A DNA stretch of 64,000 nt from Fistulifera solaris (Eukaryota): assembly GCA_030295235.1 (NCBI GenBank), contig AP026139.1, positions 186,001 through 250,000 of the forward strand. The letters run 5' to 3'. Of the stretch, positions 13,801 through 50,700 are shown in pieces. The notes beneath the pieces are model-generated. The model saw nothing but the letters and a program-made list of their open reading frames with translations. It made no database searches and had not been told where the DNA came from. Made by a program: the position numbers and the translations under genes. Positions within the stretch are counted from its first letter, which is position 1; every line of letters begins with the position of its first letter.

Positions 13801-16800
13801 AGCCAATAAAGCGATGGGAAGGAACCATGAAGGTTGGCAAGTCAGTACTGGATGATCTAAGGGCGGCGACTTCCGGGACTGGGACCGCATCCACTCGCAA
13901 TACTCCGACCATCAATGTCGCCATGACCACAACGGCTACAGCCTCGAGATCCTCCACCACGTGACGGCCCCACAGAACTCGTCGGACTTGAATCCCCAGT
14001 GCCAGTGTCAAGAGCAAGTAGGCAGTCGCCCAAATTTGGAACTGGAAATGACGTGCAGAGCTTGATTGTTTCAATTCCACACTGGTATTCTGTACAGCTC
14101 CCTAGGTCTGAAGACCGGGAAATCTTGTTAGGTTCAGAAGGAGAACAAGTCTGGATCGTTAAAAAGGCACTTACCTATGTCTGGCTTGCAAATTAGGTTG
14201 CAGGGTCTGTGTACGCACACATCCTTCACGGACTTGCACGAAGCATATCCTGCGCCTTCAAAATTTTCGCAATTAAGATACTCCATATTTTTGCATGTTT
14301 TTCCGATAACATTGTACGGAATTTTCCCCAACAGCTGCCTGCAGATCTCACATGCAGTCGCTTGAATACAGTCGAGAGCAGCGTTCAAATTTCTGGACTC
14401 TTTGATTCGTTCCAACGGCAAAAGCTCCTCTCCATAAAGCCGGCGCCTCGGTAGACTAGCGTTTGCCGTTTCTATGACATCCAAAACGTCTGTACTGTTC
14501 GGTCCTGCATATAAGTATGTGTACAGAATGGAAGTGCTGAACTCGAACACACTCTCAATTCGTCCAAAGTCATCCAGCGAGACTAGGCTCTGCCCCATCA
14601 CGGGGTCAGATTCCTCCGCAACGATCATTTGCTGCCTTCTTTCATCTTCTGGAACAAAAAGAACGTTATTTCCGTGCCGGAGCTCCCCCGAATCCCACCG
14701 GTATATCGAATCGAACGATCTGTTCGATACGGACAGGGAAAACGACACTAGAATTTGCTGGCACTGTTCCAATATTTCGAACCCGTGTTGGATCTTCATC
14801 TTCGTTTGGAAGAATGAATCGGGCATTCTGAAAATACGCTGGCCAGCGATAAGTCAGGTCATGTGCCGCAATCAGACCATAGTTAGTTGCAGTCACCTGA
14901 ATCTCATCGACCAATCCTGAACGGATTCCCTCCCAGTCCAATATGACTGGATCCCATACTATGACAGGCCGGGGGGACGAATGTTTCGAAAGTAGCCTCA
15001 ACCTGGATAATATACTTGTCCAAAACGTCAACCTCTACAACGCTAAAAGTGTAGGACACGGGATCAGCTTGAAGAAACGCCTCAACAAGTTGACCCGGTG
15101 CTTCTAGGAAGATCTCTTTCCGAAAGGAGTTGTGACCGAGCTTCTCGCGCATAAATCTCATAGAAATCTTCAACTAGATCCGGGAATGTAAGCGTACCAT
15201 TGGGCCCTGAGCTTTCCGTGTAGGAAGTACCGACTGTGAGACTCCGTATGCGAACTGACACGTTTGCGAGATTTGGAGTATTTTCCGCAAAGTAGGTGGC
15301 TTCATCTTGAGTGACAATTGTAAGCGCAGCCAGACTCTCAGAGACCACTGTAACGCTGATAGGACAATTCAGCAAAAGTTAAATTTTCTTGAAAACCAAT
15401 GACACCTGAGAAGGTTGTTCCAACATCCATGTCTTCTGATGCCACAAAGGCCAATGATACAGTAGTGTTCTCGTCTCACGGCAAGACTTGGAATTGTCTC
15501 GTCTGAGACCAACCGCAGAATGGTCTGATTAGGCATGACCATGCTAATCGGACTACTTGCATAGCTTCCAATGTTCTTGAGTGTGACATCTCTGTACACT
15601 ACATCGCCTCCTTTCGCGGCGTGAATATCAATCCAACTTGGCTAAACTTGAAGTCTTGGTCTCCGGTCTCTTATGTCGAGATAGATGAATGCCGATTCGG
15701 TGATGCCTTCACTCGTTTGCACAGTAAAGTATAGCCGTCCTTGAAGCGCTTCGTCTGCAGTTGCTTCAAAAGAGAGGTCGACTGACGACGACAAGTTGTT
15801 TGTGCTATTAACACCCAAGGAACTTGTCAAAGACAAACTTTCGGCCTTGTCGAACGCAACAGATATTCCAGAGAATGAACCACCATGGAAAGAAATACGG
15901 AACGCATTTTCAGCCAGCACAGTCTCCCCGTGAAACCGGAAACGAGGTATGATGAAGGCGAGATGTCGACTCCCCTTATAAACAATTCACCTTGCACCGT
16001 CGAGTTTTCGTAACCAGAGTGCTCACCACCATAAACAAACATTCCAGCTTCAAAGCTGTACGGTTGGTAAAGAATTGAAATCGTGCCGTACGGGCTGGTT
16101 TTCAGACTAATTTTCCGACGAGTCCCATTGGGAGCTTCTCTGATCCACAACGTGGCAAGCTTACCGCCGACCAAGGCATTCGGAAGCAATCGCTCGTGTT
16201 TCCGACATCGAAACTCAGTCGAGGAGCAGGGCGCATCTTACTCACAGCATCGGTCGAGACCTTGACGTAGTAGGAAGGACTCACTTGAAGTAGACATAGA
16301 TGTAGTCGCTCGTTAGCTCATTGCGGGCTTGCACACGGACCGACTGAGTCCGAAGTTTAGCTTCCGGGCTCTGCCACGACAGCTTTCCAGTGGAGCTATC
16401 GATCACCATGCCTAGGGATGGAACTCCAATAATTGTCCACTCAACAGGCTCAGAACCCTTATCCAAGGAGAGAATCACATTAAAGGGCTCGCCTTCAACC
16501 AACGTGAACGGGGCAATAATATCTCTGATAAGTGGAGCCACAAGTTGTTCATCGCATGCTTCGCCTCGAAAGCCATAGTAACACTGACACCGACCGAAAC
16601 TACAAAAACCATTTTGACACTGTTCCTCAGGGCAGTTGCTGTAGAAAGTGAAGGGAATGGTGTTGTAAGAGTACTCATCATCCACAATCAGTCGCAAAGA
16701 AGAAAGAAGCAACCCAGAAGATGAGACCTGCACGCTCGGACTGATGCACCTGAGCGAAGCGCCGTCCAAAATGGCGTCCTACTGTCCCAGCGCCATAGAA

Positions 16801-19800
16801 GTAACATTTCTTCGTGCTGTTGGTGTCACCAAAGTTAACACCATCTATTTGGATTGTAATTCCACCTTCGTCAATAGCGTCGTTTGGTGCAACCAATTCG
16901 ATGTAGGGCAACGAAAGACATGCCGGTCCGAAGTACCCCGGTGAGCACTGGCGACACAGGTCCCCTGCAAAGTTGTGAGGGCACTCACAGCAAGCTTTGC
17001 TGCCGCACGCACTGCAGCTGCCACCGTTGTAACAAATAGGGCATTTAACACATTTCTCTCCAATCTGCTTGTAGTTTGGAACACATTCATCGCAGCACTC
17101 TCCTGTATACCCCACAGAACAGGAGCAAACATTTGGCAAAGCGCAGAAACCATTGCCGTTGCACGAGTTGCACACGTTGCATTTAGCCACCGAGCATGAT
17201 TCGCCAAGCCAATCGTCATCGCAGCTGCATACATCAAAATCTAAACACGGACCATGACCATTGCAGAATCCAATGCTCTGGCATGTTGGTGTTCCACAAG
17301 CCGGTCCACCCCATCCTTCTTCACAGATGCAGTAGTCAGGAAAAACACAAAGCGCCTTGATTCGAACAATTAAGATCACATACAGAGTATAGTTCGGAAG
17401 GGAGAAATGGAACTATAGTGATTTGCGGAGACGTGGGTCTTCATCGTCGTCGTGGATGCGATTGTCAATTAGAGCCTCTGAGAGATCGGTTGGCAAAGCA
17501 AAGCGATTGTTGGTTGCATTGACCACCATGTCAGCAGGAAAGGCTCCACTGAAGCCAAAAGTTGTTATTTCCAATCGTGACGAGGGATAGTCATCAAAGT
17601 CATTGCCTTCGATATTCCATGTCGACAGTCCATTCGAGGCCAAAGAAAGGACAGCCCTTTCACCTGACGTTGAAAGCTTGGCTTGATTCTTTCTGAAAAT
17701 GTTACCATGAATTCTAGCATATGGTTGGTGATTCTTATATAAGGCTAAACGAACGATATTGTCCCCTTCATTGCTCTCGACAAGGTTACCTTCAAAAGCA
17801 ATTGATCTGAAAGAATATAGGTTTACAATGTTACAACTGGGGCAGGAGTTTGACAGGAACCGGCTAGGCAAAAAAAGAGGCAGAGAACGTTAGAAGCAGC
17901 CAAGGATGGGAACAGAGTCAGCCAAGTACACGCACCATAATGATACTGATACTTTTTCATTTTGAGATGAACTGGTAACAAACAAAGCCGAACGGAGATC
18001 AAAAAAATTAACTCCAGCAATGTTGATGCCAAGGTTCGACCCCCATCAATTCTCAATCCGTTGTTGTTGGAGTTGGAAATTGAGCTGCAGAGTAAGAGAC
18101 GAGGCAGTCCACGTGAGTTGGTACATGGACTGTCCATACAATTTAGTCCCACTTTAAAAGCACGAGTGCATTTACCTGTCAGAGATATTGAAAAATTGCT
18201 TCCGCCCTTAGAGTAAATCTGTGTCCCGGTTGGATCTGCTTCAAAATTCGCCACAAAATCGCGAACCTGAAATCTTTACACTTTCGCCTTTGTTTACCGA
18301 AAGTCCTTCTTGTGCTGAGAAGGTGATGTTTGTGTCTTGGATTACCACAGACTGCGCATTGAAAGAGGAGTCAACATAGACTCCACGGCGTTTGCTCCTC
18401 TCAATCACTGAATCACGAATGAGAAAATCACCGGGAGCATCGTGGCGTAGACACCGTCGGAGCCCGATCCCTGATCAACCCATTATTAATCATCACTCCC
18501 ACACGTTCAAGGTAAACAGCAGCTGGCATAGAAGCATATCCGCCATTGACAAGGATGAAGTGCCTCAGAACAGACCCATCGGTATATTCGCTTCCTGCGA
18601 TGTCACTACCTTCCGCACCAGGACTGAACCAGATCCCACCCCATTCGCTCGATGATGGAATTTCGGAATCACCGTACTCATTCAAAAGTCGATCTGTAGA
18701 AGACAGGAGAACTGGATGGGTAGTATTGCCCAGGACACGAAACTCTCCTTCAATGATACGAATGATCACTGACGGAGCGAAGAGAATCCTGACTCCAGCT
18801 TCAAAAATAAGGACAGCATCCGGATGCTGAAGAATGATTGAGCGAGGTCGTAGTACAAGCCAGCTTCTACCAAAATGGTGACTGCTTGAAGACCGTCCCA
18901 CTGATCGTTCGTCCCACCGTATCCACGATTGAACCCATAGGAGGCGAATTAATTTTGGCTCAAGGTTTCATCCACATAAATCCCTGAATAAAAAATAGAA
19001 GCAAGTGTAGCTTGACTCAAGCTGTCAAATGTCTTTTCTTTTAACTCCTCAAAGCTTGTTGTGCCCCAATAGTTGGAACCTATCGTATATATACCACCAT
19101 CAACATCTTGGAACTTCGCCGACACACTAACGAAGAACTTCAAGGCCGCTCCGTTTGTAAGGATGTTCTCCGTCAATACAAGAGAAGTATCTGTATATCC
19201 TCGGGAGGAAAATCGCACTGTATCCAGAGCAGTTATCAAAACGATTGAATGACGCTTAGGCGTCTTCGGAGTCGACGCTCAATAAGCCGTGAGGGCGACT
19301 CCACATTAACACTCGAAATTAGGTTTCCAGTCACATTTAAAGTGGATACTCGAAGTCTGAGGCAATCTAGACGACAAGAAAAAGAATCAAAGGTGTTGTT
19401 GCGAAGTACAAGCGGCGACTGGTGACATCGACAGCGTGAATTTGTAGTGGCACCACTCTAGCGATGCGGTTACCAATCATTTTGAAACTACCAGTACCTC
19501 CTTGATTCACATAGATAAGGGAGTTCGGGTTTCCCTTGAAGTTAATCAAGTTGTCGTGCAATTCAACCAAAAGAGAGCCTCTATAGTGGCCATGCGCATA
19601 GAATACGTGATAATAAAGATTCGGGACCTCAAATCTGCAACCTTTCATCGTCAAAGGACCCACATTATAACCAGCGTGCAGCGGATACCCGTAATAAATC
19701 CCCGGTAGCAAAGTCGCATCGAACACCACTGCTTCCACAAGAGACGTTCCCGAATTATCGAGGTCAAGCCCTCTCATATACTGATACTTCGGTCGCATTT

Positions 19801-29052: not shown

Positions 29053-30487
29053 TCATTGAGACGCTCGCGTCGGCGGTCGACGTAGCGCCGTGACTGCTAT
29101 CGATATGTCATCACGATAGCGTCCTTGCTTGGCTTGCTGCCAGGCTTGAGCGGCTGCGAATACTAAATGTTCACAAGCGGATATAGGATGCACACCCGTG
29201 GCCTCAAAAAGAGAGTGAGCCAGTATTTTGGCGATATCCCCTTCATCTAAGTAATCCATCATTCCATCTGTGGCACTGATAGCAAAGATATAAACATCAT
29301 CTTCCTCGTGCGATCCGACCCAACCGTCATTTTCGACTTGATATCCTTCCATTTCCGTCGCCACGATCGTCGGGATATCCAATACGTGCACAATTGGATC
29401 CGGTATGACACCCATCTTCCCCGCCGCCCAATCCCCAATCGAACGACTCATGGCCAAACCCGTCGGTGCCATCGTTTCCGGATCCTGATACACCACCCGA
29501 CTGGTACCCCGTATCGGAATATACACTTGACCTCCCGCCGCTTCGACGCGGGCTTTTTCTTCCGGCAAATTGGGTTTGTCTTCACGGGTCATGTACACAA
29601 TTTCACAGCGCATCGTCGAAGGACGATACGCCACAATGAAACTCCTTGAATCGCCCGCATTGGCCACGTATATTTTGGACCCTTGTCGGAGGACCACCGT
29701 GGCGGTGCAACGCCCCGATGGGTCGGCGGGTACGCGTTGATCCAGTTCAATGAACGTTTCGGACAACACGTTGGCCGTTTTTCCATAATATCCTCGGATG
29801 AGGAACAGTGGTCTAATGCGTTCCGCAATTTGGTCGCGAGTAACGGAGGTAGTTCGGTCGCAGCAAATTCCGACACCTGTTCTCCTCGCGGAGCATGACC
29901 ATCAAAGACTCCCATGAGTATTCGTTCTTGTTGAATGGCCGTATTCGACGAGGATGATTCTTTCGTGATATAGTAAGGTGATACAATGACGGCACGATCT
30001 TGATTGATTTGATCGGTGAGTTGGCCTCCTTTGTAGCCAATCAAGGTCAAAGTCACGGCATCGGTCGCGATGGATTCTTGCAAAACACCAACCGAATGTC
30101 GATCCGCATGGATTCGTTTCGTATCACGAATCTTTGCAAGGCCAATTTGACGGCATCATAATTATAATGCACATCGTGGGGCGTTTTGGGGCAGCCGTAA
30201 TAGGGACAGCGCGGATCGCGATTGGGTGGAGACGCGGCTTCCATCGAGGCGGTCGACGACATGGGCCGCGAACTCCATGCCGCAGCCGTTGTGAGTACAA
30301 TGAGAGGTGATATGAGTCGCATTTTGTTGTTGTTGTTATTGGTATTGTTGTTGTTGGTATTGCTAGTGTGGTTGTGACTCTGTTGGTGCGGAGAATTCGA
30401 TATTCGCAAGGCCAAGGCCGATCGTATCGAGCGTCGAGAATGGTAATATGGAAGATGTGATACTACGGAGCGACACTGTCGTAACAT
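29053..30487 (-). CDS. PP2C/PPM-family protein phosphatase (frameshifted), Arg/Ser-rich N-terminus resembling a mitochondrial presequence
   Basis: QINQDR, VFDGH, VANAGDSR, GLAMSRSIGD, SATDGMMD and DDIS are spread over ORFs 30053-30487, 29589-30083 and 29053-29769. Confidence 0.88.
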
Positions 30488-30895
30488 TGCGACAAATCTC
30501 GCTTTTGTTCCGTCCCCTTGACGAGAAGCAACAGCTGGAGGAGAAAAAAAATACTGAAAAAAAAACGAATGGTTCTCCGTCTTTGTAGGACACCGTCATG
30601 GTCGAAACGGAAGAAAACAAAAGCCGTTCCAAGCCACCGGCGACGAACCAAAAGCGAAGTTGCTGACACGTCGACACGTCGACACGTCACCCTTTCTTCT
30701 TTATGGCCTATACTAAGAAGGACGGACTCTCCGACTGGAGTACAAGTCATTCTCTCTGTGACATTCATCCAGCGAACTAGTAAAACGTTCGTTCAGTCAC
30801 GAGTTCCCAGTGTCGACGATGGCGATCTCGGAAGGAACTCCACAGGTTTCACAACACTACCTGGTAGGTACAAGGTTAGTAAGAAATAAAAGATC

Positions 30896-32082
30896 ATGTT
30901 CCCTTCTTCTTGTCATTACTTGGCGTTCTTCTTTTCCTCAGCGGTGTATCATGTCGTAACGAATCATCATCATCTCCCTCGTATTTACTTCTTCCACGAG
31001 ATTTGGCGTTTGATTCGACGACACGCCTTGCGCTCCAAAGTCTCCGTCAATCTCCCAACACGTCCTTTCTGTACTTGCAATCGTTATTTCCTCATCATTC
31101 TCTGTCCCAGAAGCAACCATACTGGAATCACACCGATTACGGAACATTGACATTGGTGGGAAACAAAGGAGGACATGTGTTGGAACAAATCAATCAAGAT
31201 CGGTCCTTGGTTTGGCTTTCCGAAACAAACATTCTATCCGGTGTCATGGATGGACACGGAACGGCCGGTCATTTCGTGGCGGAATACGTGCGACACGATT
31301 TGTTGCGGCGACTTTGGAATAAAACGAACGATATTGAACCATGGTTGCACGAGGTGTTTCTACAAACCGATCAAGCGATACCGGATGAACTGGCACATCA
31401 TGGTGGATGTACCTGTTCTTTGGTCTACCAAAGCGGTGAGCAAATCTATTTCGCCAATACCGGTGACTCGCAATCCTTCTTGGCGGCCGCCTATGGAGAC
31501 AACGAAATGCATGTGCAAATCATGTATGAAACGCGTTTGGATAAACCTGGTCATCCCGACGAGGCCCAACGGTTGCAGCATGCCGGGGCCCACGTGACTG
31601 GGGCAACCGAAGAAGACGATGCTCGTGTGTGGGCGACCGATCCGGCCACGGGACACACCAGTGGTTTGGCCATGAGTCGCGTCTTGGGAGATCGACACCA
31701 TACAGCGGTGATTGCGGATCCTTCCATTCAAGTCATTGATTTGAAGGCCATGAAAGAAAAGGTAATACAAGATTACAATTTGTATCGAACACAACAATGT
31801 CAACAAGTAACAATCCACGCGGATGGTTCCAGCGATCCTTGTCCTCTGGCGGAGAAACCGGAGGCGGTGCACTTTTTCGTGGTTTCGGCAACCGATGGTG
31901 TCATGGATTTCCTGGAACCTTTAGAAATAGCACAAACTATGGCTGGTTATTTGTATGGAAACCAAGGGCATCCTTATTTGGGTATGGAAGATCTTTTGTG
32001 GCGATCGACACATCTGTGGCAACAACACGGCCAATACCGAGATGATATGGCCATTGCTTATGCGAAAACAGCGCAAGTATAG
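30896..32082 (+). CDS. PP2C/PPM-family protein phosphatase with signal-peptide-like N-terminus
   Basis: QINQDR, VMDGHG, ANTGDS, GLAMSRVLGD, SATDGVMD and DDMAI. The ATG at 30896 needs a 1-nt correction to join the long frame. Confidence 0.9.
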
Positions 32083-36907: not shown

Positions 36908-37566
36908 GACTGAGTCCAGTCGTGACGAAATCCGCTACATTTTATGACTAGAGAAAAGTAGTAGCAAGTCTATTCTATTCTCTACGGAGTATTACGCATT
37001 TTTTTATCGTAGCTGACAGTTCAAACGTCGTTCTTTTGGTGAAGCCACCATGAAAACTAGTGCTACGGACGAATAGTAAATGAACATGGGCTTCCACTTG
37101 ACGTTTCCTTCGTGGCCCACCTTTTTGCATTATAGCTTCAGAATCTCCCTGCCTCATCTGAATACAAAGTAGTCGTGTGACTTTCCTTGATGGTCATTCC
37201 GAAAATTTGTTTTGCAGATTCTGCTCCAAGGCCGCTTTTCCCAGTCGAATTCAGAGCCTCGCTTAATGGCAATTTCGATTCTTGACTACGCACTCGTGAC
37301 GAAAGAGCGGCTCATAGATATAGCGGAACGAAGTTCTAGATCTACATTAAGGGATAGAGTAAATTATCGCCACGACACTGCTCGGTGCTCGGTGCGCGGT
37401 GGAACCCACCAGATGTTCTCGTCGTCGGAACGAGCTTTTTTCTTTTTTCGAGAGTGAACACAAATGCCATGACAAAGAGAGTATGCAATCCCATTTCTGT
37501 GACCTCTTTCATCCCATTTTTCCCTTTCTTTGCTTTAATCCCTTTCAATACTCGATCCTATTCTGC

Positions 37567-40500
37567 ATGGGTCGTATTCGGCACCCGATCTTTCTCATGA
37601 TACTTACATTTCTCGCACGGAGTAGTACTCGATCGCTCGTGTTGGTCAATGCCTGGAGTGAATCTTTGCATACAACAAGGAAAGCGTACGCTTCATTCGA
37701 ACCACTTTATTTCGCGAATACTCGGCCCGGTCGTCGTCGTCGAAGCTTGTCAATATCTGCGGTGGATCTGGCCGATGACGAAGAAAGCACAGCGGAATCA
37801 TTTGCGACAGATGCTTTTCAAGTCCAGGCGCCCTTTCCACCGGCGGGAGATCAACCGGCAGCGATACAGGCTTTGATCGAGCGTATTCAGAAAGGAGATC
37901 GGTTTGCCTTATTGCGTGGCTGCACCGGCACGGGAAAGACTTTGGTAATGAGTCATGTGATTGCCGGCACACAAAAGCCAACACTCGTCCTGTGTCACAA
38001 CAAGACTTTAGCCGCGCAATTGGCGCGAGAATTGCGCGCTTTTCTCGGACCTGTGGTCGAACTGTTTGTGAGTTATTACAATCATTACCGGCCCGAGTTT
38101 TATCGAGAAACGACGGGGACCTACATGGCGAAAAAATCGTCGGTCAATCCGGATTTGGATGTGCTACGCCACCGAGCTACTCGCGCCCTCGCGTCGCGAA
38201 GGAACGTTGTTGTGGTAGCGTCGGTGAGTTGCTTGTTTGGTTTGGGGCTACCCAAGGAATACTTGGATGCATGTGTACACTACAAGACCCATGACACTTT
38301 TGATTGGGATGAGTTCTTAGAGAAGTTGACTCGATTGCAGTACCGAATGGCGGAGGACGATGAAAGTTTTGAAAGAGGAAAATATCAGATATTACACGAT
38401 GATAGCACAGACTCGAAAGTGATAACCTTATGGCCTCCTTACGAGAAATTTCCCATGCAGCTTGATGTTACTCCAGTGGCGACTAATTCGACGCAATTTT
38501 CTGTTCAAAGTATCCGTCAAGGTAATCAAGGCGGATTTCAAGCCATCACCGAATGCAAACTATTTCCCGCCAGTCACCATGTTACTCAAGATATGGAAGC
38601 GGCTTGTTTGTCTATTGAAGAGGAATTACAGGAAAGGATCAATTATTTTAATGACATGGGGAACACAGACGCGCGCAATCGCTTGCAAGTCTCTGTATTG
38701 AGGGATTTAGATCAACTTCGTACTTGGCACAGTTGCAAGGGCATTGAGAACTACAGTCGCCATTTAGCGGGTCGAGCCGCTGGCTTACCTCCCGACACTC
38801 TCTTAGATTACATGAGACTACTCAATGGGGATGATTGGCTACTCATGATGGACGAAAGCCACGTAACACTACCTCAACTGAGCAGTATGTTTCGAGGCGA
38901 TCAGTCTAGAAAGCGTCAATTAGTCAAACATGGATTTCGGTTGCCATCTGCAATGGACAACCGTCCACTGAATGAACTCGAATTCTGGGACCGTGCCAGT
39001 CAAACAGTTTTTGTTTCGGCGACTCCGTCACCCCGTGAGCTTGCACTAACAAACAGCGACCCAATAGATATGATCATCCGACCCACGTTTGTTTGTGACC
39101 CTAATATCGAGGTTCGACCGTCTGATGGAAAGCACATTGATGATTTGATCGAGGAGATAAAAGCTCGCGCAAAGAAAAAAGAGGGAAGTCTCGTTATCAC
39201 CCTGACAAAACGCGACGCAGAAGATTTGGCTAGTCACCTGGAAGAATGTGGCGTGAAGAGTGCGTACTTGCATTCAGGTCTTAAAACGCTGGAGCGTTCG
39301 AATGCTTTGCGAGCTCTGCAAGTGCGAGAAATTGATTGTATAGTTGGTATTAATTGTTTGCGTGAGGGACTCGATTTGCCGCAGGTCTCGCTAGTAGCGG
39401 TTCTTAATGCCGACTGTGAAGGATTCCTGCGTTCGGAATCGGCATTGCTTCAAGTTGTCGGACGAGCGGCTCGAAATATTCATGGAATGGCGATCTTTTA
39501 TGCAAACCGAGTGACAGATAGCATGAAACGGTGTATGGATCTGACAGTGCATCGACGACAATTGCAGCTTGATTACAATAAGAAGAACGGGTGTTCTACG
39601 AGATCAACGACAGGATCTTCGGCGCTGTCCTTTTTGATTTACTCAAGGATCAGATAGAGTTTGAAAAAGGGCTGATGGCAGAAGCGTTTAAAGCCGTTCA
39701 ACTTTCAAGTTTTACTCCGGAGCCTCTACAAGTTATTTCTGCAGAGAAAGGAAGAAGTCAGATTGTGACGGACCACATTCCGAATACACCCGGCGTTTAC
39801 TTCTGGAAAGACGCCGAAGGATCGATACTATATATTGGGAAGGGTGTCAATCTTCGCAGTCGTGTTAAATCATATATTTCGACGAGTGCCAAACACAGCC
39901 CTCGTATCAAGGAAATGGTTCGGCGCGCCAAGTCGGTCGACGTTGTCTTGACAGCCAGTGAGCGCGACGCATTACTTCTCGAATCAAATTACATCAAGCA
40001 CCACCAGCCCCCTTTTAATGTTCTTTTGAAAGATGATGAACATTATCCATACATTTGTGCGAGTGTGGGAGACTCAATTCCGAGTCTCACCGTTGTGCCA
40101 TACCGCCAGCCAGAACATGTCAGTGGATCATCGCGTTACCGATACTTTGGCCCGTATACGAGCTTCCAAGAAATTAATGCCATCCTTGATGACATAGAGC
40201 GAGTGTATGATTTGAGAGTGAAATCATTTATGACTCGCCAGGGATCTTTGTCGAAAGAAGCATACAATGAGCTCTTTGACAAAGCTCTGGAAGAGATCTT
40301 CGGCGATTCAAGAGGGTTTTCTCACAATCTGCGAATGAGACGTCGCCAATACGAAGAAGCGGGACTGTTATTCGATTCAGAGAGTAATGCATGCAGGGAT
40401 GTTGTAACCGTCCAGCTTCTACCAGATGATGAAGCCTTGGTGAGTGTGATGCAGCTTCGGAATGGGATCATGGCTGGAAGGTATAGATATACCTGTCAAG

Positions 40501-41402
40501 TCCCCGCTGGTCTCGGGGAGGATGATCTAGGCTCTGTCCTTCAGACTGTTTTGACCGAAAGACATTATCCATCAGGAAGTGAACACTCAACAAAATGGTT
40601 TCCCGACAATGTTTTACTTTCTCGTCCTTCATTAGACGTAAAAGTTTTGAAAGAGAGTATTCGAGAAGGGCGTTCACGGATTGAACCGAATAGAAAAGGA
40701 AGGATTCAAGTCAGGACAGCGGCAACACGTGGTACGCAGAAGGAAATTGATGACAGAACTTTAGAGTTTGCAACAAAGAACATGAATCAGGACGTACTTA
40801 ACCATGCCAACAAATACACCATTCCTTTTCATGGAGATGTGGCGTCCACGGAGTTGGCTGATCTATTGGCCCTAGAAAATCCTCCGTCGCGCATCGAGTG
40901 CTACGATATTAGCCATACGCAGGGAGAGAATGCCATTGCTTCGAGGGTCGTGTTTGAGAATGGCGAGCCGCAGCCTCACTTATATCGACAGTTTGTAATC
41001 CGATCTGTCGTTGGTATCGATGATTATGCAAGTATAGAAGAAGTTTTGGAGCGACGTTTTCGGCGGGCATTTAATGCAAATACGGATTTGGAGGGAGACG
41101 ACTCATGGGCCGTTCCGGATTTGGTGGTGATTGATGGAGGTAAAGGGCAGTTAAATGCAGCTTTGAAAGGAATTTTGAAAGCAACTGAATCACCGGAAGG
41201 CCAATGCGATATTCGATCACTAGTCGCCATATGCGCTCTGGCGAAAGATAAGGAGGAAGTATTTGTGCCTGGTCGGAGTGATCCAGTTAATGATCATCCC
41301 GACTCGCGCGCTCTGCTTTTGTTGAGAGCCCTCCGTGATGAAAGCCACCGTTTTGCATTAAAGGCGCATCGAAAGAGACGGTCGGTTTTGAAAAATGTAT
41401 AG
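37567..41402 (+). CDS. uvrB-uvrC: UvrB (37567-~39635) plus UvrC (~39630-41402) excinuclease, probably a single fusion protein with plastid-type presequence
   Basis: UvrB: PAGDQP, GCTGTGKT, HNKTLAAQL, FVSYY beta-hairpin, GIENYSRH, DESH, GFRLPSAMDNRPL, VSATP, LREGLDLPQVSLV, QVVGRAARN. UvrC: GIY-YIG PGVYFWKD..LYIGK..LRSRVKSY, YFGPY, RIECYDISH, DDYA, PDLVVIDGGKGQL, LRDESHRFA. The two frames overlap at a T run (39631-39635). Confidence 0.92.
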
Positions 41403-41575: not shown

Positions 41576-43009
41576 TCATTCGTAAAGTGACGACCCTTCC
41601 GCCTCTAATTGCTTTCCAATATTCACAAAATCCACAATCTGATTCGGATCCGACGCCCCCACGATAATTTTATCAATTCGCTTTTCTTTCCACACATGTC
41701 GTAAGGCAAACTCTTGTAATCGCATATCTTCTGGGACAGGATACTTGGGAGAATCCCCACCACTATTTTCTCCATGGATCAAAAGATGTCGCACATTTTT
41801 GGCAATCGAATACTTGACCGCCAAATTGAACGCCCCAAAGAATGCCTCCAAAACTTTGGCGGTATCTTCGTCGTAGGACTCAAACGTGTCGTGTATCAGA
41901 GGGATAACTTGCTGCAGCAAGAATTCTTCGTGCGCCGCAAAGGATCGCACTTGATCGAGGCCCGCATCCACATCGTGCAACAGGCTCTGCATGAGCTTAC
42001 ACCCGTCCAGCGTTTCTCGTTGATCGGTATCGAGCTCGATTCCTTGCGACTTGAGTTCCAAAATTTCTTCCGCATCGAAATGTGCCATGGCGGCCTTGAG
42101 TGCGACTTGATAAGCCTCCGGAAGTCCCGTCATTTGATGCGTCCATTGCAGTGGATCGTTCTTGTTCATGGTGGCGGGTAGTGGATAATCTCGCAACACA
42201 AACGGATGTGATGTGGAAGTTCCCCGATCCGGGTAACACGATAGCGGACGCATGGCATAATATTGAATGTGCGCTGGCGCATCTTTCTTGCTATTCAGAA
42301 AATCGGAACTTTCCAAAAGGTTGAAAGGGAATTGTACGACACGGAAATCCGGTGTTTCTTGTTGCAAAGCGGGTGCAACATGATGCTGCCAGGACAAATG
42401 CAAGGGATGTGTAGCGGGCAAACTGAATCCATTGCTAACAATCCCGTACGAATGCAAAGGACTTTCACGAACGAACTTTTGCAGTTCTTTGAATGATTCT
42501 GACAATTGATGAGCCAGTGTCTCATCCTTCTGGTCTTGTAGATTGTGATTCTTTTGGACTTCGGGATTGTGCAGCAGAACGACCAATTCGAGATGGTCCG
42601 GGTATTGTTCCGCCAGTTTCATCAACGGAGACTGCGTTAGAGCATAATCCAAGTAATTGGGTCCTATATTGTGTAACACTCTATTCGTTTCGACAACAAC
42701 GTCGCCCGGGAAGAACGCGCCGTGAATTTCCTCGGTCCCCGTTTCGGCCGCCGCGACTTGTCGATATCCGACTCGCACGAGACATTGAATCTTGCGGGGC
42801 ATTTCCTTTTCGAGAATTTGTGCCAAAGCCGCATCGCCTTCTTCTGTTCCCGCTTCTATACAAGAGAGACCTTGTTGAAGAGCGGTTTGAACGAGGAGCG
42901 GATGCTGCGACGAACGCCATTTCGACCCGCCCAAGCCGAGGCGGTCAATTGCCACTGTCGATAGACATCGTTTGCTTGTAATTCTCCTCAATAGCGTACA
43001 AGAAATCAT
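41576..43009 (-). CDS. Aldo/keto-reductase-like TIM-barrel protein with mitochondrial-presequence-like N-terminus
   Basis: Intact 477-aa ORF. RLGLGG, VLLHNPE, YGIVSN, VQFPFNLLE and IIVGASDPNQI resemble AKR core elements. Confidence 0.6.
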   Translation of the reverse strand: MISCTLLRRITSKRCLSTVAIDRLGLGGSKWRSSQHPLLVQTALQQGLSCIEAGTEEGDAALAQILEKEMPRKIQCLVRVGYRQVAAAETGTEEIHGAFFPGDVVVETNRVLHNIGPNYLDYALTQSPLMKLAEQYPDHLELVVLLHNPEVQKNHNLQDQKDETLAHQLSESFKELQKFVRESPLHSYGIVSNGFSLPATHPLHLSWQHHVAPALQQETPDFRVVQFPFNLLESSDFLNSKKDAPAHIQYYAMRPLSCYPDRGTSTSHPFVLRDYPLPATMNKNDPLQWTHQMTGLPEAYQVALKAAMAHFDAEEILELKSQGIELDTDQRETLDGCKLMQSLLHDVDAGLDQVRSFAAHEEFLLQQVIPLIHDTFESYDEDTAKVLEAFFGAFNLAVKYSIAKNVRHLLIHGENSGGDSPKYPVPEDMRLQEFALRHVWKEKRIDKIIVGASDPNQIVDFVNIGKQLEAEGSSLYE

Positions 43010-43597
43010 GCTCTTACTTGATGTTTGTTAAATATGAATGGTAAAAAGGTTCGTGAAGAGGCGGGCGATGCCTTTTGTGATAAATGAATGATGATAGATA
43101 TCATCATTCGTTTCATGGTCGATGTGTTATTTTTTTTTTTCGCAAGATTTCGCTCGATCCTCCTTTCGAATTGCTTCTACGAGCGAAGGACAGAACGCAA
43201 CGGAAATCTGACCTGGTGCGACGTGACCACGAACTCTAAGTATATTAAATGTTCGAATTTTGAACGGACGAACGGACGAACGGACGACGAAACGTTTCGT
43301 GTATCTCTTTCCAATGTACAAAGCTCACTTGGATCGAGTACTTTCCAGCGAATATATCAGTTCCGAACTTCCACCTATGGCCCTTTACTACTGTTTTTTG
43401 TTAGAATGATGTCAGCGAAGAACTGAACGGTATCTTCGAAAAGCTGACGTATTCAATGTTGTTTCTCCCCCTCGCACGCGGCGCGCCACCGCAAAACACC
43501 AAAAAAAAACTTTCTCGCTAACCGGCTGCTGTTGCAGGTTTGTTTGCAACAAAACCAAAAGGCCCGTATTGTGGAAAAGAGACATTCGACAACCAGC

Positions 43598-45167
43598 ATG
43601 ATTCGAACAATCCTCAATCTCCTGCTCTTCTTGCATCTCTTGGTGCAGGGAGAGGCCTATGCGTATGGCTATGGCGGCACGTCGATGTGGGACAAAATGC
43701 CGGTCATGACTTCGGACGCCTCAGAGCCCGCCCACCGGTCGTATAATTTGGCTCGAAATGGCGGGTATGGGTACATGGGCTACGATGGATGGGGTGGTGG
43801 ATACGGAATGAATCGTTATTCGCCCTACATGAGTTACGGGTAAGTTGGAAAGCGCCTTGCGTGTCGCAATTCAGACGCCTCACTGATTCCGCTTGCTTCT
43901 TCTTCTTTATAGAGGTTACAACGACTATTACGGAGGATACGGTCGTGGCTATTCGTCTTACGGGTACGGAGGATATTCGCCTTATTACAATAGGTAAGAG
44001 AGGAAGTCATAGTGCCGTCTTTGAAAGTACAGTGTTTCGTTCGTGAAGTTTCTTGTGGAGATTTCTGCATGAGCGAAACACTTAACTCCTCATTCGTGAA
44101 TCATCGTCTTGGCCTTTCATAAATTCTCACTTGTTCGGTTGCTTTAGGGGATACAACGATTACTACGGAGGATACGGGCGTGGATACGGATACGGAGGTT
44201 ATTCTCCTTATTATAATAGGTAAGTGAATTTTGTTTTTGTTGTTGGTAGGAGAGCCCGTCGGTTGTCCGTGAATGATATCACTTTCACTTCACGTGTATA
44301 AGAAAATGTTTTATTGCATCTGTTTTTCAAATATCTCATGTTGTCGTCTTCTCCGCTTTCCTTTTCAGTGGTTACTCTTCGTACGGATACGGAGGTTATT
44401 CCCCTTCTTACAAGTAAGAGCTTTGGAGTTGCTATCAGTTGTGTTGACGTGAAGATTTTCCTGCAGGCTTGCGGGGTGTCGTGTTGGTCCGGTTTTTGAA
44501 AAAGTGTCGGCTGTGTGACAGTCTCATCGTCTCATTCTTTTGTCTCATTCTTTCGTTTCTTTCTTTTAGCTCGTACGGCTATGGATCTGGGTAAGGACGT
44601 CTTTCGCTCATTTCGTAGGAATGCCTGCTAGAGCTTGTGTCTCATTCTTTCCGTCTCTTAATTCAGCAGATACGGCGGATACGGCGGATATGGTGGATAT
44701 GGCGGATACGGAGGATACGGCGGATACGGCCTCAGCTCGTACTACCGCCCGTACGAGTCGGATAAAATCGCTCGCGTGAGTCGCTGGACTGGCTCGGATG
44801 CGCGATATGGATACGACAGCTACCCTCGTTCGTACGGATATGGCTATGGAAATGGTTATGGCTACGGCGGTGGCTATGGCTATGGCTATGGCAATGGCTA
44901 TTACAATAAGTAAGAAGATAAAGTTGGTCTTGGGATGATTTTGCCATCTTTTGCCTCATTGTTGTGTTTGTCTCTTCCAGCTATTATGGCGGCCGCTATG
45001 GTTCTGGTTATTACAATAACGGATACTACAATCCTTACAACAGTTACTACAACCGTGACCCGTACGCGATGAACCGAGGATACATGAACTGGGGCTCGTC
45101 GTGGAGATCGCCTTTGTCTCCGGACGATATCACGTCTCGAAAGTCCTACTTTGACTGGCAGGCGTAA
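43598..45167 (+). CDS. Secreted Tyr/Gly-rich protein, 7 exons (43598-43839, 43913-43993, 44148-44219, 44369-44413, 44570-44590, 44667-44909, 44981-45167), 296 aa
   Basis: Signal peptide MIRTILNLLLFLHLLVQGEA. Six GTAAG...YAG introns with pyrimidine tracts give one open spliced frame of 891 nt of YGG/YGY repeats ending WRSPLSPDDITSRKSYFDWQA. Confidence 0.85.
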
Positions 45168-45924
45168 GCTTCCGTACCAGATACTATATTCTTGAATGTT
45201 TTCCATTACTATTTTAAAACGATTAACCATGTGTTGTACTGTTAAGGTAGGTCTAGAGATTAGGCCTGGGATCTTGCTTAGATTGCGGTCTTTGTTCGTG
45301 CGGAACTCTTGTTAGTTTTGCAACCGAGCGCCAACGCTTTCCATAGAGGGTTGGGCGTTAGACCCAAAGATATCAAAGCTCAGACGATGAGAAAGAATAA
45401 CGCTTACGAGATAGGTGGATCCAAGCAACGAGAAATCAATCGAATTAGGAGCATTAGCGATGAAACCAGATGGTCGTCCGTTTTGGTTGGTGGCGTTATC
45501 TCCTCGCTCCTCGCTCATTCGTCCATTGGCTGTTCTGCGGTTTTTCGCCCGAAGACGGTCAGTACTGCCAACGTCATACACGTTGATGGACGACAGCTGA
45601 CCACTTTTTCACCTCTGATAGAGTAGTGTATAATTTCTGGATGACGTGGGTTTGCGCGCCCGTCGAGCACACGAACTGCAACCTTCGACGACCACGTCGT
45701 GGCAAAAAGTCTTGGGGGGTGGACAAAACCCAACTTTTATGCGCGCGCAAAGGGTACGCACTTTCTTCGTTCCATTATTTTGTTTTGACACCTATCGCAT
45801 TGTAGTGTCCTTCATCACGTTGTTTCTTCCAGTTCTCTCTATCTTCGACCAAGAATTTCTCTACTTTTCCTTCTCTCGCAGTATTGACGCTTCCTCTCTC
45901 TAAAAAACAGCAAACAGCAAGACA

Positions 45925-47010
45925 ATGATGCTTCAAAAGACACTCTTACTGCTACTCGTAGCGAACGTCTCGGGTTACACCGCGAGTAGCTACGCTTCTT
46001 CGGGCCGTGAATGGACGACCGAAACCGGTTTTCAGCCCAATTACGCCGGGCATTACGGCGGTAACTACGCCCCGGGACCCTGGCAAGGTTCGTTCTCTCG
46101 CTCGCTCGACACCGCCGACGGCTTTCAGCAAGGAAAATCGTCGCGCTGGACGGGCTCGTCTCCGACGGCCTCGTATTCGCCTTACGTGCAGCCGATGTGG
46201 AACAACAACGGCTACTATCCGTCCACCGAATACGGCTATGACAATATGTATCCAGGCCAAGGTTATCAAAGATCGAACAACAACGGCTATCGATTCTATG
46301 ACGATAACAATTACTCGTCGCGGTCCCCGTACAGCCAGCCCTACCGCAATGGCAACTATGGGTACGGTGTTTCGAGTCAGTACTCGAATGCAAGTTATCG
46401 CAACAATGGGTATGCGAACCAGGCGTACGGCTATGGCTACGAAAATCGTCGTTCCGATCAAATTAACAGCAAGAAAGTCGACCGCTGGACCGGGTCTTCC
46501 CCCAGCACTAGCAACAGTCGTTATCTGTATGATTATGGAGGCCGTTATTACAACATTGATAACGCCTACGAAGATTCGTACTACAATGGTGCAGAAATGC
46601 CCTATTATTCCCAAGACGGATATGGTCGTCGGGCTGACAACTATCGGTACGGAAACTACCAGGGTTACAAGCCATCTTCCATGGATGGACGAGAACCCTA
46701 CAACCAATGGACTTCTGGATCTTCAAGAAACTATGGTAATCGCAACTACGATCGATACCAGACATCCTACAATGATCGAGGTTACTACCGCAATGGAGCC
46801 TACGACAACCGTGATGCCTACTACGACAATAACTATGGACGCTATGGTTTCGATCGCAGTGCCTATCGTGCCAATGAACAGATGAACTCGTATCAGAACT
46901 CGATTTATGGTTCTGGGCGTCAACAAGGACAATCATGGAAATCGCCTTTGTCTCCCGATGACATGGCTTCGCGAAAATCTTCCGACGATTGGTCGTCGGC
47001 GTCACGTTAA
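45925..47010 (+). CDS. Secreted Tyr/Asn/Gly/Ser-rich protein, intronless paralog of the upstream gene (361 aa)
   Basis: Signal peptide MMLQKTLLLLLVANVSG, RWTGSS twice, and C-terminal WKSPLSPDDMASRKSSDDW. Confidence 0.85.
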   Translation: MMLQKTLLLLLVANVSGYTASSYASSGREWTTETGFQPNYAGHYGGNYAPGPWQGSFSRSLDTADGFQQGKSSRWTGSSPTASYSPYVQPMWNNNGYYPSTEYGYDNMYPGQGYQRSNNNGYRFYDDNNYSSRSPYSQPYRNGNYGYGVSSQYSNASYRNNGYANQAYGYGYENRRSDQINSKKVDRWTGSSPSTSNSRYLYDYGGRYYNIDNAYEDSYYNGAEMPYYSQDGYGRRADNYRYGNYQGYKPSSMDGREPYNQWTSGSSRNYGNRNYDRYQTSYNDRGYYRNGAYDNRDAYYDNNYGRYGFDRSAYRANEQMNSYQNSIYGSGRQQGQSWKSPLSPDDMASRKSSDDWSSASR

Positions 47011-47799
47011 GAAAATTACGTTTTCATGACCAGCTTTTTGTGCACTCTGCAAGGCAATCAAGATTAATATTACGATATTGTGTGTAAATCTAATTAAATA
47101 GGACTTCTTGATATATTAGTTTCCTTGGCTGCTCTCAAAACATAGCTTTTAGTCGATACTAAAAGCATAGCATGTACGGTTATTCACTTTGGATAACTTT
47201 TCTCTAGTAGGGGAGTTATCTATAAGACTATGCGCTTCGGTCGGCATTCGTCTATCGTTGATTTTTGAGTTTCAGGAATATGCAACGAACATAGCTACAG
47301 CTTCAAACAGAATTAGCTTTGTTCTTTGGATGACCCCTTTCTGCCCTACCAACGAATTGGATGACGTCGTTGATGCAAAAGTATGACGTGGTCGATGCAT
47401 AAATTGCTGACGTGGTTGATGCAGTTTTGAAGTTTTGGATGACACATGTCACATGTGACATGCGGGATTCGAGACGCGAGACACGCGAACACCACGGACA
47501 ATGAATGGACGGGCGGATGACGGACGATTTATGAGTCATCCTGCCTGCTGCTGCCTGGGTCATGGTGTGTCTCTAGTCACGAATAATGAGTGAAAAATAA
47601 AATGTTCGGCATTTTGCTAGTCTATGATAAGGTTCTAATCGAGCAAGCGCGGAAAACGAATATTCTTTGCGATCAACAAGAGTGATATAATGATCATACA
47701 AGCTTACGCGAGTCACATTTATGCTGTTACGAATAATATTACACACTGTTCATGCGGCGCACTGGGAAAACGTTGCAGGACAGCGCCTTCGCAACACAT

Positions 47800-50700
47800 T
47801 TAGAAGCCCTCAAAAAGGGCCATATGTTTATCGCTGAGAGGGGGGCCCTTGTCCAACGTCTTGTCGGTCACACCACTCCAATCATCAAAGTTTGAAGTGT
47901 CGAACAGACTCTTGATCGTGGGAATCCATGGAGCTTGTATTGCTCGCTCCCTCATTCTGACCGTGCTGAGATCACCGAACCACCTATGACTTAAAATGTC
48001 TTTTTTCTCCGCGAGCCAAGGACCCAAGACGGTTCGATGGAGACTTTTCCAGTAACCTTGAAATGAAATCAACCGCCTCCGAAGATCGTCCTTCCAATTC
48101 GGGAAAGTCTTCTTCAACGATCAGACGATAAAGTTCGAACTGTTCAATTCCGTCCTCATAAAAGGACTAAAGCCCATGACCATTTCGTAGCTCAATACCC
48201 CCAGTGCCCAGTGGTCGACAGGCCAACTATGGCCTTGCGATATCACAATTTCAGGCGCAAGGTAGGCCGGGGTGCCACAAAGAGTGAATGTTTGATCCAA
48301 GACTTTCTTGGTGAAGCCGAAGTCAATCAGCTTGGGAAAGCCAAACCTGTCGAGCATAACGTTTTCAGGTTTGAGATCGCGGTATACATATTTTTTTTTG
48401 ATGCAGATGCGCAAGGGCATCAGCAATTCCCAGCAAATAAAAGCGCGCTCTATCCTCATGTATCTTGATCCGACCGTCATCATTGTTGAGAATCGAGAAT
48501 AGCTCTCCGCCCGGCACAAAATCCAAAAGCATATAGACAAAAGCAGCGTCTTGAAAGGTTTGGAAAAGATCAATGATGAAGGGATGGTTCACATTCAAAA
48601 GAACATCCTTCTCGCGCTTGCAAACCTCGACCTCTCCTTCGGTAATAAGATGGTACTTCGATTGGATCTTTAACACGTAAGGTTGCTGCTTTTTAGCCTC
48701 CTTGTCAACGACTAACCAAACCTGTCCGAATTCGCCTTCTCCCAAACAAACCCGTCTTTCCAAGTTTTCAAGCTTGACATTGACATTCAGGCTTGCCTTT
48801 GGCGAATATAGTTGAAGATTATCGTTGTCAAAGGCATCGGAAGATGCTTTTGTTTTCTTAGCCTTTTGTCATCTTTCGATGAACGTGTTTTCGAAATTTT
48901 ACTTCCTTCAGCTATCACATCAACATGGGCTTTTGTCGACTTCGGAGAAGATATTGGACACTCTACAGCGTTAGTATCGTTTGCAACAACGATTTGATCA
49001 CCAAAAAAAGCATAATAATCTTTCACCGGTAAAACACCGCATGTGCAATCGGATTCTGCAGTTACTTTGGTCAAAGACCTCCCTTTGAGTGCCTTGCTAT
49101 CCCTTGCTGACTGGAATAAGTTTTCCCCAAAGTGTGCCCCTTCTGAAATTAGAAGTAAATTTCGCCCTTCAGTTTCATAAACCTTACCAGATCGTACGAA
49201 ATAAATTGCGGCGTCTACGTATTGATCGACTTCAATGATCGTGTCGCCTTTTGAAAATTCGACGTTCTTTATCAAGCGAGTCAAGCCCACAATCTCGTGG
49301 TGTTTCAAAGGTTTTCCAGGTTTACGTTCAAATGACCTCACGGAATGAAGAGTTCTAGAATGCATAGGAACCAAACTGGAACCCATTGCTTGGTCCTTCA
49401 ATTCTCTGGATACAACATAGGCTTTTCCGTGAGTCAAAGCGACAACATTTGCCTTCATGATTGGTTCTTCGGCGAGTACTGCATGTTTTCCAAAGTAGTC
49501 ACCAGGGCCCATAATTTTGTTGTCCTTACTTAAACGGCCAACCTTTACGTCTCGGCACTCAACACTTCCTTCTGCGATCAAGAAAAACTTGTCACCAATA
49601 TTGTCTTGTTTCGCTAGAGTTTCGCCTTTTTGAATTTGATGAGGGTGAGAAGATTGGACAGCTTGTGCAGCTGCTCTGTCGACGCATTTTCTAAGAAGTC
49701 GAGCTTTTCTAGTAAGGCGCGCTTGTGTACGGTACTCCTAGTCGCCTCGTCTTGAAGCAAATGCCTGAAGGTCGTTTGGTCGAATCGGTACAAGACGGAA
49801 TCGGTAGTAGCCGTTGCAGATGCGAGACGACGTGAGTTGTGCAGCAATGCTTCCTCACCGAAGGAATCACCAGTTGTTGCAACATCGTGCCTTTCACCAT
49901 CAATGATAATGTCACACTGCCCATCAGCAACGACATAGAAGTACTTGTCCTCATCACCTTGAGAGAATAACTGGGTCCCCGCTGGAACGTTAACCTTTTC
50001 AAACGCAGCTGTGAGTGACTTAATTGTCTTCTCGGGTAAATTTTCGAAGACAAATCTCTTCTTGATTGCATTCTTCAGCAGTCTATCCTCTTGATCCGTT
50101 TTTGGGTGTTGAGGAGCTCTAAAATTTGTTGGCAGCTTGGTTGGTACCTGATAGACGTTACCAGCCTGACGTATCACAGGTACGCCGTCTCTTCCACCTT
50201 GGTCCTCAAAACGAGCAATTCTGGCAATAAACGAGGCTTTCTCTTTTCTCTTTCGAGGAGATAGCAGCGGACCTGTCATCTTTTGGGTTGTATAGGGCTT
50301 AAGTCAGGTTCGACGATTTTTGTTTCTGCGCGCTTTTTTCTTTTCCTTTTTCTCCTTCTTGTCCTTCTCTTTCTTACTGCTGTTAGACTTTTTTGGGGAA
50401 GACTGGGGAGACTCGAACTCAGCAAATGGTGGCACTGGAATTGCTGCCTTGCTCAAGGGGGACTTTATTCGTACGGTCTCATCATTGTTCATTGAGGATT
50501 CGTCGTCGTCGTAGAGCTCTTCATCTGCTTCAGGAATAACTTCCGGATGCTTATCCGCATTGAACACCTCGCGTATAGGACCGTCTTCATTGGAAAAGCT
50601 TTCTGATCCTTCTTGGCCTGATTCAACGAATAGGCCTCTATTGCACTGCACAGGCAGGGAGAATCGATGTCGCTCCTTGGTGGGCGAAGTGGGTTCGGAA

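Follow-up and report, generated by a model that had tools for sequence, protein, structure and literature searches.

Within a 64,000-nucleotide (nt) stretch of the Fistulifera solaris genome (assembly GCA_030295235.1, contig AP026139.1, positions 186,001 to 250,000 of the forward strand; hereafter the window, to which all coordinates refer), the plus strand carries at 43598-45167 a gene for a Tyr/Gly-rich protein, the focal gene of this study, whose coding sequence (CDS) is interrupted by six introns of identical phase. Our best explanation, to which as a whole we give a probability of about 0.6, is that this is a genuine, expressed and constitutively spliced seven-exon gene of a eukaryotic microbe, which would encode a secreted structural protein of a small family and would have grown by tandem copying of exons with their introns. 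The phase symmetry of the exons is best read as the footprint of this duplication, a by-product and not a device for isoform mixing.

The seven exons (Table 1), joined by script, gave a single open reading frame (ORF) that opens with the ATG at 43598 and closes with the TAA at 45165-45167. All six introns are of the GT..AG type and of phase 2, the codon being cut after its second base; each starts with GTAAG at its 5' end, finishes with a pyrimidine-rich tract followed by AG, and bears a branch-point-like CTSAY word 18-59 nt upstream of the acceptor. The combination of phase 2 with a GTAAG donor places an in-frame TAA in each intron between 43840 and 44980, so that retention of any intron would end translation two codons in. 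No ATG is present from the upstream in-frame stop (43445) to 43598; the start codon was assigned from the ORF alone, and the RNA pieces shown begin past the first 48 nt of the CDS.

Transcript evidence came from the public sequencing runs matching the locus, four from one organism and two from freshwater metatranscriptomes; contigs of four of these six runs were aligned to the window. The evidence on splicing consists of assembled contigs, which lose rare variants, and includes one RNA-like run of the organism. Two runs, X1 and X2, are labelled DNA-like and RNA-like respectively, labels that represent the tool's guess and the coverage pattern. X1 showed depth in 30 of 30 bins, introns and spacers included, and had no GT..AG joint. 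X2 showed depth on the focal exons and on the downstream ORF, left the spacers 43300-43701 and 45310-45845 uncovered, and produced joints that skip introns. Introns 2, 3, 4 and 6 were crossed by exact GT..AG joints in X2 contigs. At introns 1 and 5, the flanking X2 pieces are too short for alignment, and the letters of the loose ends match the adjoining exon: the loose end at 43839 reads the start of exon 2 and that at 43912 reads the end of exon 1, while at intron 5 two contigs pass from 44590 to letters from 44670 and one contig at 44669 has the end of exon 5 before it. At these three X2 contig ends (two at 44590 and one at 44669) the CAGCAG acceptor was always cut after its distal AG, giving the junction 44590/44670, and no use of the proximal AG (44666) was seen among them. 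The 21-nt micro-exon is real, as it is bridged on both sides in X2 contigs.

An independent freshwater metatranscriptome, X6, yielded a contig identical to most of exon 1 that then runs into exon 2, as well as a contig with 14 differing letters over 44740-44909 that exits exon 6 at the donor 44909. Short low-complexity pieces from X5 and X6 at 44852-44901, the loose ends of which enter unrelated sequence, were set aside as GGCTATGGC-type repeats of other organisms. An earlier interpretation made from the letters of the window (the sequence-only reading) had proposed the seven exons, the six phase-2 introns and the micro-exon; the joined frame is open, all six predicted junctions are used in X2 contigs, and the first is also used in X6.

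The same reading had described exons 2-4 as duplicates of each other, and these exons are indeed copies at the nucleotide level: exons 2 and 3 have 63 identical bases over the 72 that they share, plus one 9-nt indel, and of the 45 bases of exon 4, 40 agree with the 3' part of exon 3. The codons on the donor side read ..TAT TAC AAT AG before GTAAGA in exon 2, ..TAT TAT AAT AG before GTAAGT in exon 3, ..TCT TAC AA before GTAAGA in exon 4 and ..TAT TAC AAT AA before GTAAGA in exon 6; the ends of these four exons are thus near-identical, with TAT/TCT-TAC/TAT-AA(T-AG/T-AA) preceding GTAAG. At the 3' ends of exons 1 and 6 the same coding unit, ...Y-(S/Y)-N/G, stands directly ahead of GTAAG, the end of exon 1 being a related ..YSPYMSYG. 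These comparisons support the proposed growth by exon duplication and extend it to the 3' ends of exons 1 and 6. Introns 2-4 are moreover similar in length (154, 149 and 156 nt). We propose that the unit would be a repeat exon together with the intron that follows it, coding for ...GYGGYSPYYN-R/S and copied in tandem repeatedly. Only frame-keeping copies could have survived, and the duplication would be old, the introns having drifted while the exons were held by constraint. If an exon-plus-intron unit was copied in tandem, the shared phase of the six introns does not count as six separate events, and same-phase exons with lengths in multiples of three follow; no selective explanation based on splicing is needed. 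Two other possibilities were rejected: introner-type repeated introns, as, pieces of 11-20 nt aside, nothing in the window matches an intron other than the intron itself, and fossil exon copies within introns, as no intron match lies inside an exon.

Both X1 and X2 contain, within 43300-47300, a second version of the locus alongside the window's own sequence; at 43744-43780, for example, the variant accounts for a depth of 17 of 27.4 in X1. This version, which may be the other haplotype or a homeologue, differs in length by 98 nt immediately ahead of the start codon (43499>43598). Contigs of each version are found in the RNA-like X2, and both versions are expressed. The second copy is spliced at the same places at introns 3 and 4, where the X2 joints have 3 and 7 letters between; these joints represent an identical splice in which a few codons differ. 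Compared with the window, the second copy of the focal gene has 11 listed exonic substitutions, all of which are synonymous third-position changes, and the second copy of a downstream paralogue, described below, has 17, of which 15 are of this type. The listed length differences are of 3 nt each, three in the focal CDS (43795/43796, 44819 and 45082) and one in the paralogue (46039). These counts cover the listed differences, beyond which lie 46 others. The synonymous third-position bias among the listed differences, together with the 3-nt indels, indicates that the protein sequence, repeats included, is under purifying selection.

The downstream ORF is an intronless tandem paralogue of the focal gene. 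It is transcribed, X2 contigs covering 45862-46977 with no joint, so that for this gene the RNA agrees with the 0-3 introns that the sequence-only reading gave to the other genes of the window. The C-terminal motif W[KR]SPLSPDD..SRK..DW is identical at 16 of 24 positions between focal exon 7 and the paralogue (E 1e-08), and the RWTGS regions of the two proteins match with a pairwise E of 0.011; in six frames over the whole window, both motifs are confined to these two genes. Five homologues of the paralogue, with 55-93% identity, were found among 1211 candidates from 5.8 billion proteins, and P0009, 93% identical to the paralogue, may correspond to the second version of the locus. Long blocks of non-repetitive sequence are shared without change by the six paralogue-family sequences, whose C-terminal 26 residues are nearly invariant; a profile of the six retrieved only its own cluster among 1.84 billion representatives. 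The query with focal exon 7 found one protein, P0014, an orthologue fragment with 75% identity, which keeps both motifs and in which the LSSYYRPYESDK.ARVSRWTGSDARYGYDSY core of exon 6 is nearly identical. P0014 and P0013, the most distant homologue of the paralogue, each lie on a 3140-bp contig, which suggests that the tandem arrangement is conserved. Metagenome contig scans with the paralogue and with its alignment confirmed as relatives none of 35 and none of 235 pattern matches, respectively; none of 60 candidates scored when the exon 1 peptide was compared with longer proteins, and the protein Atlas gave no usable match for the paralogue. A Pfam scan of the exon 1, 6 and 7 peptides, queried as single-exon peptides, and of the paralogue gave no family up to E 10, and a scan of the paralogue ORF with an E limit of 0.01 gave none either. 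By their sequences, the focal gene, the paralogue and their relatives appear as a small lineage-restricted family of Tyr-rich, low-complexity proteins with a hydrophobic N terminus, defined by RWTGS and the C-terminal motif.

Table 1. Exons and introns of the focal gene, RNA coverage of its first exon, and the tandem paralogue (positions in the window).
Feature	Position	Strand	Description
Exon 1	43598-43839	+	242 nt; start codon, hydrophobic signal-peptide-like N terminus, first Tyr/Gly stretch; ends with the ..YSPYMSYG unit
Exon 1, RNA	43646-43839; 43702-43839		identical in X6 contig (first range) and in X2 contig (second range); loose ends of both read the exon 2 start
Intron 1	43840-43912	+	73 nt, phase 2, GTAAGT..TAG; crossed by loose ends at 43839 (X2, X6) and 43912 (X2)
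Exon 2	43913-43993	+	81 nt; repeat module GYNDYYGGYGRGYSSYGYGGYSPYYN
Intron 2	43994-44147	+	154 nt, phase 2; X2 joint 43990>44145, cut +3 = 43993/44148, GT..AG
Exon 3	44148-44219	+	72 nt; copy of exon 2
Intron 3	44220-44368	+	149 nt, phase 2; X2 joint 44217>44367, cut +2 = 44219/44369, GT..AG
Exon 4	44369-44413	+	45 nt; shortened module copy
Intron 4	44414-44569	+	156 nt, phase 2; X2 joint 44413>44570, GT..AG
Exon 5	44570-44590	+	21-nt micro-exon (SYGYGS); 21 letters separate the 44570 joint from the loose end at 44590
Intron 5	44591-44669	+	76 or 79 nt, 79 nt as used in RNA; 3' end CAGCAG (44664-44669), distal AG
Exon 6	44670-44909	+	240 nt as used (243 if from 44667); (YGG)n run, conserved LSSYYRPYESDK.ARVSRWTGSDARYGYDSY core, (GYGY/GNG)n run
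Intron 6	44910-44980	+	71 nt, phase 2; X2 joint 44909>44981, GT..AG
Exon 7	44981-45167	+	187 nt including TAA; Tyr/Asn-rich stretch and conserved C-terminal W[KR]SPLSPDD..SRK..DW
Intronless tandem paralogue	45925-47010	+	361 aa; hydrophobic N terminus, rich in Tyr/Asn/Gly/Ser/Arg, two RWTGSSP motifs, C-terminal motif of the focal gene

Translated with the distal acceptor, the spliced focal gene encodes about 295 residues, among them no Cys and three Lys. Its N terminus is the sole hydrophobic stretch (Kyte-Doolittle mean of 2.36 over residues 4-16, against at most -0.23 elsewhere), from which we infer entry into the secretory pathway. The mature part, of about 275 residues, consists of 26.5% Tyr, 25.5% Gly (52% for the two together), 11.6% Ser, 6.9% Asn and 5.8% Arg, and has a computed pI of 8.75. 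AlphaFold2 run on the paralogue alignment, weak evidence with its six sequences, predicted only an N-terminal helix (mean pLDDT, the model's own confidence score, of 35.3); this model and the composition point to disorder, and the likeness to other secreted Gly/Tyr-rich proteins suggests a structural role. Most likely, the protein would serve the cell covering or secreted material as a disordered component of structure or matrix, in which cohesion would come from many weak Tyr-Tyr and Tyr-Arg contacts, perhaps fixed by oxidative cross-linking of Tyr, and in which the conserved RWTGS and C-terminal motifs may serve in sorting, processing or anchoring. The remark of the sequence-only reading that the protein has almost no Lys was correct. 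The secreted structural, adhesive or phase-separating role that it proposed for the Tyr/Gly-rich protein would fit the N terminus, the composition and the very low-confidence model of the paralogue. The paralogue and the conserved non-repetitive motifs, which it had overlooked, are the most informative parts of the protein.

How does this protein compare with known systems? Frustulins are defined by acidic Cys-rich domains, and Cys is absent here. Cingulins and silaffins carry Lys clusters; the features looked for in the focal protein were Lys-rich stretches, as KXXK or Lys clusters, together with Ser-rich sequence, and its 295 residues contain no KXXK and only the three Lys. Hydropathy and composition agree with those of Gly/Tyr-rich structural proteins in general, which combine a signal peptide with high Gly and Tyr. 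This general kind includes plant glycine-rich wall proteins, trematode eggshell precursors, coccidian oocyst-wall proteins, mussel foot protein 3 and worm cement proteins, and several of its members are hardened by dityrosine or 3,4-dihydroxyphenylalanine (DOPA) chemistry. The likeness lies in the signal peptide and the Gly/Tyr repeats, without sequence relation to the focal protein, and the focal family differs in having its own motifs, RWTGS and W[KR]SPLSPDD..SRK..DW.

Hardening by dityrosine or DOPA chemistry is described for Eimeria (PMC7366593), and a silica-proteome preprint (10.1101/2021.09.18.460806) raises the possibility that such matrices are based on cross-linking of Tyr-bearing proteins mediated by H2O2. 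The closest described counterparts are the Tyr-rich proteins AC3362, AC1077, AC714 and AC4076 of the diatom Amphora coffeaeformis, which have a signal peptide, modular repeats and more than 10 mol% Tyr; AC1077 contains 23% Gly, the set was without homologues by standard BLAST, and AC3362 is located in the insoluble cell-wall matrix and not in the adhesive (PMC4220933). Compared by description, the Amphora proteins and the focal protein share a signal peptide (putative in the latter), a modular build, Tyr richness and a paucity of relatives; however, in the Amphora proteins Lys provides almost all of the positive charge and Pro-rich modules are common (PMC4220933), whereas the focal protein has Lys at 3 of 295 positions and draws its charge from Arg. 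Cingulins and silaffins are likewise secreted and of low complexity, and the Y-type cingulins are Tyr-rich, but these proteins are Lys- and Ser-rich (PMC4220933), unlike the focal one. As for the gene, exons of one symmetric phase class that code for disordered repeats, a mark of modular growth by duplication, have been described in the human genome (PMC3632108); the present case differs by its phase 2-2 exons, its 21-nt exon, the adjoining intronless paralogue and the compact genome of a microbial eukaryote. Among the papers listed by our literature search, none dealt with a Gly/Tyr-rich secreted dityrosine protein of diatoms or with a comparable algal exon-duplication gene.

The sequence-only reading had seen in the exon pattern a means of producing combinatorial isoforms, the symmetric cassette exons and the CAGCAG acceptor being used for regulated skipping that would yield length variants of one structural protein. 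Its arithmetic is right: the internal exons all have lengths in multiples of three between phase-2 introns, and single skips of exons 2-6 each keep the frame and the conserved C terminus. Of the lengths that it gave (81, 72, 45, 21 and 243 nt), only the last changes, exon 6 measuring 240 nt as observed, which is still a multiple of three; likewise the CAGCAG acceptor is present, and only use of its distal AG was seen, at all three contig ends of intron 5. However, none of the eight listed joints connects non-adjacent exons, in contigs that lose rare variants, both diverged copies share the consecutive junctions at introns 3 and 4, and module duplication alone predicts the symmetry. Contigs of one RNA-like run are weak evidence against skipping; with these points together we regard regulated combinatorial skipping as quite unlikely.

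Several points also weigh against the explanation that we prefer, tandem growth of a constitutively spliced gene for a secreted protein. Minor isoforms may exist, the contig evidence being compatible with them. Introns 2-4 resemble one another no more than shuffled controls do (0.52-0.55 against 0.51); the case for introns having been duplicated together with exons is therefore made by their position and phase, by the exon sequence that flanks them and, for introns 2-4, by similar length. In the relative, P0014 is uninterrupted from before the LSSYYRPYESDK core to the C terminus, including across the place of intron 6, and its first residues resemble a translated pyrimidine tract ending in CAG. 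The species of P0014 thus seems to be without intron 6 and probably without intron 5, two introns that may be younger than the others or may have been lost in that species, so that the six introns need not share one origin. The secreted function is a prediction. In algae with complex plastids, an aromatic residue after the signal cleavage site can mean plastid import instead of secretion; in the focal protein, Tyr could be the first residue past either of the likely cleavage sites, and Tyr18 does not vary among the six paralogue-family sequences. In the alternative that builds on this residue, the focal protein and its paralogue would not be secreted but imported into a complex plastid, as sticker-and-spacer condensate scaffolds that resemble a pyrenoid linker and use their Trp motifs as stickers. 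Both proteins are predicted to be disordered, are rich in aromatic residues and have conserved Trp-centred motifs. Yet in a protein with 25% Tyr, chance alone makes Tyr likely at +1, and the stretch past the signal contains Asp and Glu, with a net charge of about 0 in the focal protein and -2 in the paralogue, unlike transit peptides. W[KR]SPL fits the W, the R/K and the aliphatic residue at +4 of the Chlamydomonas motif [D/N]W[R/K]XX[L/I/V/A] (PMC7673724); in the published scheme it scores 2 of 6 points by our own count, with the aliphatic +4 item only. PYCO1, the Phaeodactylum pyrenoid linker, is similarly disordered, has Trp and Tyr-Asn-Pro stickers (KWSPR and GTGYNP, where the focal protein has GYYNP) and bears an N-terminal targeting sequence, but it consists of six repeats of about 80 residues, each with KWSPR, and has a pI of 10 (PMC10288592), whereas focal protein and paralogue have one W[KR]SP each, and the focal protein has other repeats, a pI of 8.75 and acidic residues just past the signal peptide. 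Plastid import is thus, in our view, very unlikely. There is slighter reason to believe its fuller version, in which the tandem genes would encode plastid-directed scaffolds whose RWTGS and W[KR]SPL motifs bind a client such as Rubisco while the Tyr/Gly repeats drive condensation; if true, this would be an independent invention of a pyrenoid-type linker in which exon modules tune valency, possibly through exon skipping.

Two further readings concern the fate of a secreted product. It could be a precursor cut into small Gly/Tyr-rich peptides, for instance antimicrobial ones such as the YGGYG peptides of nematodes, and the putative signal peptide and the short repeated Gly/Tyr modules, each ending near Arg or Asn, would suit such a role. 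However, no dibasic KR or RR lies between modules, the sole RK belonging to the conserved C-terminal motif, module lengths vary, and the conserved non-repeat motifs favour a function of the whole protein; processing to peptides appears most improbable. The protein could also be an underwater adhesive, released as trails, pads or stalks, in which Tyr is converted to DOPA as in mussel foot protein 3 or the cement proteins of sandcastle worms. This reading, which draws on composition, finds support in the dominance of Gly, Tyr, Asn and Arg with some Trp, a mix that resembles that of mussel foot protein 3, and in the hydrophobic N terminus. Against it, there is no sequence homology to any named family and no tyrosinase or peroxidase neighbour among 33 scanned ORFs; in the diatom Amphora, moreover, another study is reported to have found no Dopa, and the sole Tyr-rich candidate that was localised is in the wall and not in the adhesive (PMC4220933). 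We consider an adhesive role unlikely.

Other ORFs of the window were also annotated. The divergent upstream neighbour of the focal gene (41576-43027, minus strand) is a 483-aa ORF without a Pfam family; by language-model features, the Atlas clusters closest to it are bacterial aldo/keto reductases (score of 0.92, a lead only). Further upstream on the plus strand, two long overlapping ORFs carry excision-repair domains of bacterial type in this eukaryotic genome: the first has helicase C and UvrB domains and an N-terminal extension with a hydrophobic stretch (37363-39657), and the second has GIY-YIG and UvrC RNase H domains (39582-41402). They may represent two neighbouring genes or a single gene that contains a frame change or an intron. 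Three consecutive long ORFs with DUF908, DUF913 and UBA domains (1-6771, minus strand) resemble a single, very large ubiquitin ligase gene of the HUWE1 type that has a few introns or frame changes. The window also contains two divergent PP2C phosphatase ORFs (29053-29901, minus strand, and 30883-32082, plus strand), two adjacent ORFs with cyclic-nucleotide-binding domains (48787-50303, minus strand) and an ORF with teneurin-type epidermal growth factor (EGF) repeats, possibly another secreted or surface protein (16678-17412, minus strand).

The preferred reading, tandem growth of a gene for a secreted structural protein, brings no new principle, as both secreted Gly/Tyr-rich proteins and repeat exons of symmetric phase are already familiar. 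What the locus would offer is a clean, RNA-verified case of a low-complexity structural protein growing by copying of exon plus intron, a process that automatically gives same-phase exons in multiples of three, even one of 21 nt, beside an intronless paralogue in a compact genome. The motifs of this orphan family would also be experimental handles on the organic, non-Lys part of the cell covering or secretions of a microbial eukaryote.

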